Positions 61,205 to 64,000 of a stretch of 64,000 nucleotides of DNA are shown here, piece by piece (the stretch's first letter is position 1; every line of letters begins with the position of its first letter). Origin of the DNA: Candidatus Heimdallarchaeota archaeon (lineage in GTDB: Archaea > Asgardarchaeota > Heimdallarchaeia > JABLTI01). Made by a program: the position numbers and the translations under genes. The notes beneath the pieces were generated by a model. It was not told the origin of the DNA and ran no database searches. It saw only the letters and a list, made by a program, of their open reading frames with translations. The stretch covers positions 72,837 through 136,836 of the forward strand of contig JABCTZ010000006.1 of NCBI GenBank assembly GCA_018238155.1. The letters are read 5' to 3'.

Positions 61205-64000
61205 CGACACGCAAACGCCATCTGGGGGATGGATTGGCTCGGACGCCGATGAAGGACGTGGCTAGCTGCGATAAGCGCGGGGTAGCTGCAGGCAAGCATA
61301 GAACCCGTGATTTCCTAATGGGAACTCCTAATGCGAACCAATAAGTCGCATTACTCCGTAAGGAGGGGGAACGCACCGGACGGAAACATCCAAGTAGGTG
61401 CAGGAAAAGAAATCAACTGAGATGCCCAGAAGTAACGGCGAGTGAAATGGGCAAAGGCCAAACTGAATCCCCATACGCAAGTATTGGGAAATGTAGTGTT
61501 ACGGACTCTCTATTGAGCTCTGCGATGTGAAGCTGAATATCCTGGAAAGTTTAACCAAAGAGGGTGATAGTCCCGTAAGCGTAAGCATCCCAGAGTGTGA
61601 GAGTATCCTGAATAGCGGGGGTTGGAAATCCCTCGTGAATGGGGCACAACGAGCTCCAAGCCTAAATACGTTCCGAGACCGATAGCGCAATAGTAACGTG
61701 AGTGAAAGCTGAAAAGTAACCCGGAAGGGTAGTGAAAAGTGCCTGAAACCAGATGGTTATAGACGTTTGTGGCCCGAAAGGTAAGATCCTCCATGAAGAG
61801 AATGCTGGCGACAGCAAGATCGTTTGGAGGGGACCGGGGTCACAAGATCCGTCTAGAAACACGGGCCAGGGAGTTCATACTTGTGGCAAGCTTAAGTGAT
61901 GTCAAAACCACGCAAGCGTAGCGAAAGCGACATGCCCGCAGTTTACAAGGGGCGCCGTCTGAAAGGGCGGGAAGTCACAGGTTTGAGACCCGAAACCGGA
62001 CGATCTACCCCTGAGCAGGCTGAAGCCTAGGGAAACCTGGGTGGAGGGCCGAGCAAGTATTGACGTGCAATTCATGTTTGTTGACTTGGGGGTAGGGGCA
62101 AAAGACCAATCTAGTCCGGTGATAGCTGGTTCCCAACGAAGTGGACATAGGCCAGCCTGCTCTGAGATGGAGCATTCGGTAGAGCAATGATTGATGGTTA
62201 CGGGAAGTAAAATTCTCGCCTGTCAGTCAAACTACGAACGGATGTTTATCGTAGAAGAGTAGAGTCGGGCGTGCGTGCGTAAGGCACGTGGCCGAAAGGG
62301 GAATAACCCAGACTAAGGTTAAGGTCCCTAAATCTCGATTAAATGCTAAAATTGGAAGGACGTCATTGGACTAAGACAGTAAGGCGGTAGGCTTAGAAAC
62401 AGCCACCCGCTAAGAAAAACGTAACAGTTTACTTACCGAGTCCTTTGGCTCCGAGAATGGACGGGGCTAAATCGAGTACCGATACCTTAGAATACATTGC
62501 AAGATGTAATTTGATAGTTGGGCGATCTGGTTGGGCGGAAGCAGGGCAGTGATGTCCTGTGGACCGATCAGATTTGCAGATCCTGGCGGTAGTAACAGCA
62601 AAGAGAGGTGAGAATCCTCTCCGCCGAAAGGGCAAGGTTTTCACGGCAACGTTCGTCAGCCGTGAGTTAGTCGATCCTAAGGGCAGTCTTATCTGAGCTG
62701 CTCGAAAGGGAAACAGGTTTAAATTCCTGTACTGCGTGGATACGTCAGAAGCGGCAACGCTAAGATCATTTTCTGACGCGACTGGATAAGCTCTGTAAAG
62801 TTATCGCTTTATTTAACTATATAACCCTCAGAAGTACCGTGATGGTGAGAATGAGGTGAAAATAGGAATAGGCTGCCAATAGTGGCGGCTTGAGCTTTTT
62901 CCACTCGCCCATGAAAAGGAAAATGATAAGGATTCCACGCATTCGTACCCAGAACTGACACAGGTGTCCCAAGGTGAGAAGCCTAAGGCGTGTTCGATCA
63001 ACGATGGTGAGGGAAATCGGCAAATTCGCCCCGTAACTTCGGGATAAGGGGTGCCTGTGGGCTTGAAAGGGCTCGCAGGTCGCAGTGACAAGGAAGGAAC
63101 AACTGTTCAATTCAAACATAGCAAACCGCAAGGGTGAAAACCTGTGAACGGTTTGTGAATCCTGCTCAATGCTGGTATGTGAAATCCGGGTCCAACCGGT
63201 CCAAGCACCAGTCAATAGCGGGAGTAACTATGACTCTCTTAAGGTAGCCAAATGCCTTGTCGGATAAGTACCGACGTGCATGAACGGATCAATGATTCCT
63301 TCGCTGTCCCCACCGTCGATCGAGTGAACCCACTAGCCAGCGAACAGTCTGGCATCAACCAGCGGGAAGAGAAGACCCCGTGGAGTTTTACTGCAGCCTG
63401 TGCCTGTTTTACGGGCAGTTATACATAGTGTAGTCAGGAGCTCTGAACCAAGTTCTCCGGGACTTGGGAATGCAAAAATGAAACACTGACTTTAACGGCT
63501 TGTTTGACTAACTTCTACTTCTGTAGAAGGACAAGTATTGGTGGGCAGTTTAGCTGGGGCGGCTGCGCTTGAAAAGGTATCGAGCGTGTCCAAAGGTTAG
63601 CTCAGAGGGGACGGAAACCCCTCGTAGAGTATAAGAATAAAAGCTAGCTTGACAGGGTTCTTTCCCATAGGGAACTCTGCAACGAAAGTTTGGTCTAGCG
63701 ATCTGTCGATGGATCTCGTTGATTCACGGCAGCGGCAGAAAAATTACCCCGGGGGTAACAGAGTCGTCGCAGGCGAGAGCTCACACTCTCCAGACAAAAA
63801 GTTACCTCGATATATAAACAGAAAGATCTAGGTTTACGTTCTGGAGGAGGAGTATATCGACCCTGCGGCTTGCTACCTCGATGTCGGCTCTTCCTCTCCT
63901 GGCGCCGCACAAGACGCCAAGGGTAGGGTTGTACGCCCATTAAAAGGGAACGTGAGCTGGGTTTAGACCGTCGTGAGACAGGTCGGATTCTTTCTACTGG
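61205..64000 (+). rRNA. rrl: Archaeal 23S rRNA gene (5' end approximate, 3' end beyond window, intron-containing)
   Basis: gccgatgaaggacgtgg, gaccgatagcg, gtaactatgactctcttaaggtagcc, gagaagaccccgtggag, ctacctcgatgtcggct, gagctgggtttagaccgtcgtgagacagg. Confidence 0.98.
63785..63855 (+). other. 71-nt bulge-helix-bulge intron in 23S helix 89
   Basis: Removal restores cgagagctcac-atcgacc; junctions form gctc/gagt helix, aca and ata bulges, ctc-tccaga/tctgga-g-gag stem. Confidence 0.85.

Follow-up and report, generated by a model that had tools for sequence, protein, structure and literature searches.

A probably spliced 71-nt bulge-helix-bulge intron in the helix 89 loop of the 23S rRNA gene of a Heimdall-group Asgard archaeon

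Introns that are cut out of rRNA by the splicing enzyme are a textbook feature of hyperthermophilic Crenarchaeota. The bulge-helix-bulge (BHB) introns of crenarchaeal 16S and 23S rRNA include small hairpin forms and ORF-less remnants (PMC4496867, PMC3608112), and two small introns are attributed to the 23S rRNA of Staphylothermus marinus (Kjems and Garrett 1991, as cited in PMC3608112). Papers on Asgard rRNA treat expansion segments (PMC7594248) and circularisation (PMC12918454), and abundant tRNA introns have been noted in further papers on Asgard genomes. Our literature search, the coverage of which was incomplete, turned up no paper that describes a BHB intron in Asgard rRNA, nor one that places an intron in helix 89. 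The intron described below appears to use a familiar mechanism, not a new one, in a lineage and at a site for which no published report was found.

The window, i.e., the whole 64,000-nt stretch of DNA that we analyzed, ends within a 23S rRNA gene (61201-64000, plus strand), which matches positions 1-2717 of the archaeal LSU model (Rfam RF02540, 2372 bits), the sole Rfam match within the window. The gene is cut at position 64000, where contig C1 ends, and its remainder is on contig C35 of the same assembly: window positions 63874-64000 are identical to G000:C35:5826-5952 (minus strand), and beyond this 127-nt overlap C35 bears the 3' part of 23S. The assembly graph branches inside the gene at this overlap, which may reflect strain variation. 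No second 23S copy was found in the assembly, and the gene in the window is the only one. The 16S gene (G000:C1:70404-71894) lies on the same strand about 62 kb upstream of the start of 23S (window 61201, C1:134037), so that the two are unlinked; at 1491 nt against the 1478 positions of its model, it is free of a large insert. After model position 2882, the 23S gene contains about 130 inserted nucleotides in the helix 98/ES39 region (L002:about 1141-1270, minus strand), which agrees with the enlarged ES39 that has been published for Heimdall-group archaea.

When the gene was aligned to the LSU model (cmscan), the whole of 63350-64000 could be placed outside of the end loop of helix 89. This loop comprises 73 nt against 2 model positions, and thus contains an insert of 71 nt (63785-63855, plus strand), which is ORF-less. 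In the annotated E. coli 23S gene, GAGUUCAUAUCGAC occupies positions 2470-2483, placing the insert between positions 2477 and 2478. The minimum free energy (MFE) fold of 63761-63874 (-36 kcal/mol, z = -2.8) contains a canonical hBHBh' motif, all elements of which are on the plus strand. Its outer, exon-exon helix (63777-63778 with 63857-63858) consists of the pairs G63777-C63858 and A63778-U63857, which in the Rfam consensus structure natively close the loop of helix 89. The central 4-bp helix is formed by GCUC of the 5' exon (63779-63782, E. coli 2472-2475) and GAGU at the 3' end of the intron (63850-63853), and was supported by both folding and comparison. It is flanked by the 5' bulge ACA (63783-63785) and the 3' bulge AUA (63854-63856). 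The intron-proximal helix, with 9 bp and one bulged base, is formed by CUCUCCAGA (63786-63794) and UCUGGAGGAG (63840-63849, with the bulged base).

The established BHB cleavage rule places the cut after the second base of each bulge, here at the predicted sites 63784/63785 and 63855/63856. Cutting in this way would take out 63785-63855 (71 nt) and leave GAGAGCUCAC|AUCGACC. By alignment alone, 63785-63855 is indistinguishable from 63786-63856, both candidate boundary bases being A. When the intron was shuffled 200,000 times, the central helix was completely paired in register in 1.0% of cases, and only 0.0185% had, in addition, at least four inner pairs. The initial annotation had placed the insert after about E. 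coli position 2477, had proposed the same BHB anatomy, and had predicted cuts that restore GAGAGCUCAC|AUCGAC. All of this was borne out: the annotated E. coli gene assigns the insert to the 2477/2478 bond, every element that had been named was recovered in the MFE fold, and the restored loop equals the sequence of intron-less relatives. We regard the insert as a real BHB intron, probably spliced, in the tip of helix 89.

All four of the other genomes of the genus in which this stretch of 23S is available carry a homologous intron of 68-70 nt at the same bond. The consensus fold that RNAalifold gave for the five species contains the outer and the 4-bp helix, the two bulges and the inner stem, and the extension of the inner stem showed compensatory changes from A-U to U-A. 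The 5' bulge of G007, G010 and G005 has 5 nt, 4 nt and 6 nt, respectively, instead of 3, and in G010 and G005 this enlarged bulge faces one or two unpaired bases. The strict BHB form was thus found in the window and in G009, and relaxed motifs in G007, G010 and G005, where a 5' bulge of 4-6 nt would require an enzyme of relaxed specificity. No further copy of the intron sequence was present in the genome. Exact-pattern matches to the intron core came from MAGs labelled Candidatus Heimdallarchaeota and from one labelled Bathyarchaeia; the GenBank titles of the near relatives read Candidatus Heimdallarchaeota, in agreement with the Asgard host proposed at the outset.

We surveyed the 2477/2478 bond in 83 genomes of the class, counting it as occupied only where both flanks could be read. 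Inserts of 46-470 nt were present in 18 genomes, and the site was unoccupied in 20 (17 genomes of family f2 and 3 of f3). The introns are of 68-71 nt in family f1 (5 genomes), 186-470 nt in f4 (8 genomes), 329-339 nt in f6 (3 genomes), 221 nt in f5 (1 genome) and 46 nt in f3 (1 genome); the site is probably occupied in one more f4 genome as well, where it is interrupted by a contig end. In the other Asgard classes, the site was mostly uninterrupted, and two more inserts, of 52 and 35 nt, were found. The initial annotation had not recognized the site as common; within the class, it is not rare.

The central helix was paired at all four positions in 17 of the 18 introns, its intron strand being the 4 nt that lie 3 bases upstream of the 3' exon, a count in which related genomes are non-independent, yet several separate intron families are represented. 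Moreover, this helix covaries with the exon: GCUC is paired with GAGU or GAGC, GUUC with GAAC, GAAU, GGAU or GGAC, and GUCC with GGAU. By BLAST, introns resembled one another only inside families f1 and f6 and, weakly, in a part of f4, indicating that the interiors of introns from different families are unrelated or fully diverged. The DNA of G033, which has no intron at this site, reads GAGAGCUCACAUCGACC, identical to the predicted spliced product of the window, and the product also agrees with the loop of f2 and G015 save for known variable bases. In G033, a member of f3, about 320 nt are inserted elsewhere in the gene, at the equivalent of window 63955/63956 (L022/L027, G033:C8:54308-54629).

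We searched JGI metagenome contigs for an exact match to the exon junction predicted here and obtained two, L050 (3352 nt) and L051 (2909 nt), both about 93% identical to the exons of the window. They are continuous from the equivalent of 63784/5 to that of 63856, with the insert exactly absent. A 65-nt stretch of the sarcin-ricin loop is likewise missing from them, the sequence there being GGUAC|GAGAGGACC. In both contigs, the 3' end of 23S is joined to its 5' end (L050, 1140-1210; L051, 590-650), with about 20 nt beyond the Rfam model on each side. This joint is situated within the stem that leader and trailer of the window gene form, between the CUUCUUC/GAAGAAG and UCUAGA/UCUAGA helices, where the leader (61150-61200) and the trailer (L002 about 990-1035) form a 3-bp or a mismatched 4-bp helix with unpaired bases on both sides, which looks like a relaxed BHB-like processing site. 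A 23S sequence running head to tail without a spacer has the appearance of circularised archaeal rRNA (PMC12918454). From this circular closure, that is, from the form of the contigs and not from sample records, we infer that L050 and L051 are RNA-derived.

L050 branches as the sister of G000 plus G009 (support 0.99), inside the genus, in which all five genomic 23S sequences contain the intron. A search of the class for the genome of the L050 species found none, the best match being 92-98% identical per segment and about 93% over the aligned exon columns. The simplest reading would be that this species has a gene with the intron and an RNA from which it has been removed, but the L050 lineage may instead have lost the intron precisely, in which case the contig would come from an intron-less relative. 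In the run index, the fraction of the sampled words present is 0.60-0.79 for eight RNA runs and up to 0.96 for runs of DNA type, and as about 21% of 31-mers are estimated to touch the intron, a ceiling of about 0.79 would be expected for the spliced form. These fractions point to the spliced form in a suggestive way only and are not counted here as evidence. A search for RNA-run contigs by means of three spurious ORFs inside the 23S gene gave no encoding contigs on record, and for the 132-aa spurious ORF within 23S no homologous protein was found.

The genome encodes the proteins that such splicing would involve. Two EndA-type proteins with the tRNA-intron endonuclease catalytic domain were identified by PF01974, the catalytic (alpha) subunit of 197 aa on contig C24 (93 bits), with Y, H and K at the presumed catalytic-triad places as read by eye, and a second paralogue of 193 aa on C17 (65 bits), which is a beta-like subunit. 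This pair fits the published Asgard EndA type, an (alpha-beta)2 enzyme with an L1 loop (PMC5829648). RtcB is encoded on contig C13 (PF01139, 573 bits). Of the 25 tRNA genes predicted by ARAGORN in the genome, 13 contain introns, mostly of 28-32 nt. The presence of EndA and RtcB and the introns in 13/25 tRNA genes indicate that BHB splicing is routinely used by the organism. The number of tRNA genes is as low as 25 despite an estimated completeness of about 91%, probably because many were missed owing to non-canonical or multiple introns, and one ARAGORN call with a 2549-nt "intron" is doubtful.

Taken together, the comparative evidence and the RNA-like contigs of the sister species make it very likely that the insert is a BHB intron of pre-23S rRNA which is cut by EndA, the exons of which are joined by RtcB, and which has been vertically inherited within the genus. 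In the transcribed pre-23S rRNA, the exon GCUC would pair with GAGU at the 3' end of the intron, forming a 4-bp helix between the two 3-nt bulges; the stem of helix 89 would lie at one end of this arrangement and the 9-bp intron stem at the opposite end. The (alpha-beta)2 EndA would then cut each bulge after its second base, and RtcB would ligate the exons, so that helix 89 regains its 7-nt loop GCUCACA, and would probably also circularise the 71-nt intron. Cleavage, ligation and a circular product are thus the steps that probably take place in this species. The intron itself codes for nothing and is passed on vertically within the genus.

Retention of the 71 nt in mature 23S rRNA, where they would lengthen helix 89, would be in line with the unusually large expansion segments that Asgard LSU rRNAs bear (PMC7594248). 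However, the ends of the insert form an exact BHB, the cuts restore the conserved loop, and the inserts at this site vary from 35 to 470 nt and in sequence, the BHB alone being conserved. Moreover, the RNA-like contigs of the sister species lack the insert. Established structures place the tip of helix 89 in the interior of the ribosome, near the peptidyl-transferase centre, and to our knowledge this tip is no site of expansion. We therefore consider retention of the insert very unlikely. It is highly improbable, too, that the BHB is cut and the exons are left unjoined, which would fragment 23S at helix 89 in the way bacterial intervening sequences do. Some other archaeal rRNA elements are indeed excised in an EndA-type manner without conventional rejoining, but L050 and L051 are continuous over the junction, and RtcB is encoded in the genome.

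The contig stops inside 23S at 64000, has the 127-nt overlap with C35 and lies where the graph branches, as if the insert could be an artefact of assembly or binning, or part of a dead copy of the rRNA gene. The chance of this is close to negligible: four further genomes of the genus have homologous inserts at this bond, the gene outside the insert has the score of an intact LSU rRNA, the assembly has no second 23S copy, and the branch point (63874 to 64000) matches neither intron boundary. Splicing of a vertically inherited BHB intron remains the reading that we prefer.

The origin of the intron is a separate question. The initial annotation had noted that short archaeal rRNA introns are often remnants of homing-endonuclease introns, and a degenerate form of a once mobile LAGLIDADG intron would be compatible with the BHB splicing mechanism; rRNA sites of Thermoproteales hold ORF-less remnants and short hairpin introns beside endonuclease-bearing ones (PMC4496867). 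For the present intron, such a descent found no support in our data. The 71 nt are too short to encode a homing endonuclease, none of the 18 introns at the site in the class, up to 470 nt in length, contains a long ORF, and their longest stop-to-stop frames had no Pfam match at E <= 0.1. Such an origin is possible, but rather doubtful. No group I or group II ribozyme was matched by Rfam in the window or in 12 related loci with longer introns, and no C/D-box-like motif was seen by eye in the 71-nt intron.

Exactly this bond holds at least five dissimilar intron families in Heimdall-group archaea, none of them with an endonuclease gene. These families may represent one old insertion, the interior of which has drifted, as opposed to repeated insertion. 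That the 2477/2478 bond is a recurrent target, filled repeatedly by an endonuclease-independent route, or that the introns are kept as a checkpoint of ribosome assembly, is an unlikely and speculative proposal. If insertion was repeated, an endonuclease-independent route would have to exist, for example reverse splicing by EndA/RtcB followed by reverse transcription. Alternatively, the need to splice at functional centres may act as a checkpoint of ribosome assembly, and the introns may be kept for this reason.

Other insertions were noticed in the 23S genes of these genomes. The 65-nt stretch of the sarcin-ricin loop (L002:1399-1463, minus strand; G000:C35:5724-5788) is a second mini-intron in the same 23S gene, situated between E. 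coli 2658 and 2659 (GGUAC|...|GAGAGGACC). It is exactly missing in L050 and L051. Within the genus, G007 and G010 have no intron there. Introns also interrupt GGGGUAAC-AG, at or adjoining A2451 of the peptidyl-transferase centre. Introns at the A2451 position are about 187-200 nt long in two species of the genus, G005 (L005:about 1316-1502) and G010 (L006), where a micro-exon of about 27 nt is left between them and the helix 89 intron, and about 340-400 nt long in every f2 genome with data (L008, L009, L017-L019). No Rfam ribozyme match was obtained for the introns at the A2451 site.

Heimdall-group Asgard archaea are the closest known archaeal kin of eukaryotes, and the occurrence of BHB introns at functional centres of their ribosome extends the range of such rRNA introns, with the helix 89 loop as an additional insertion site. 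As the 23S gene of the window is the sole one, every ribosome would need splicing by EndA and RtcB beside the peptidyl-transferase centre. Inserts of this kind upset rRNA annotation, primers and phylogenies, and inflate the apparent length of rRNA.

The intron resembles the ORF-less BHB introns of crenarchaeal rRNA, such as those in the 16S of Thermoproteales (PMC4496867), in being small and protein-free, in interrupting a conserved rRNA loop, in forming its BHB from exon and intron ends, and in its expected removal by EndA and ligation by RtcB. It differs from them in its host, a Heimdall-group Asgard archaeon of mesophilic sediment and not a hyperthermophile, and in its site, the helix 89 loop at 23S 2477/2478, where no endonuclease-bearing sibling was seen. 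Archaeal LSU group I introns likewise lie in domain V of 23S near the peptidyl-transferase centre and may coexist with BHB introns, but they are ribozymes of several hundred nucleotides, e.g., at 2500 and 2593 (Nawrocki, Jones and Eddy 2018, PMC6125680), in contrast to the 71 nt found here. In its layout, the intron is identical to the canonical pre-tRNA intron at 37/38: an exon helix, a 4-bp helix between the 5' exon and the 3' end of the intron, and an intron helix, with two 3-nt bulges, each on the 3' side of a helix strand, and the same enzymes. Here, however, the substrate is rRNA, and the outer helix is helix 89 and not the anticodon stem.
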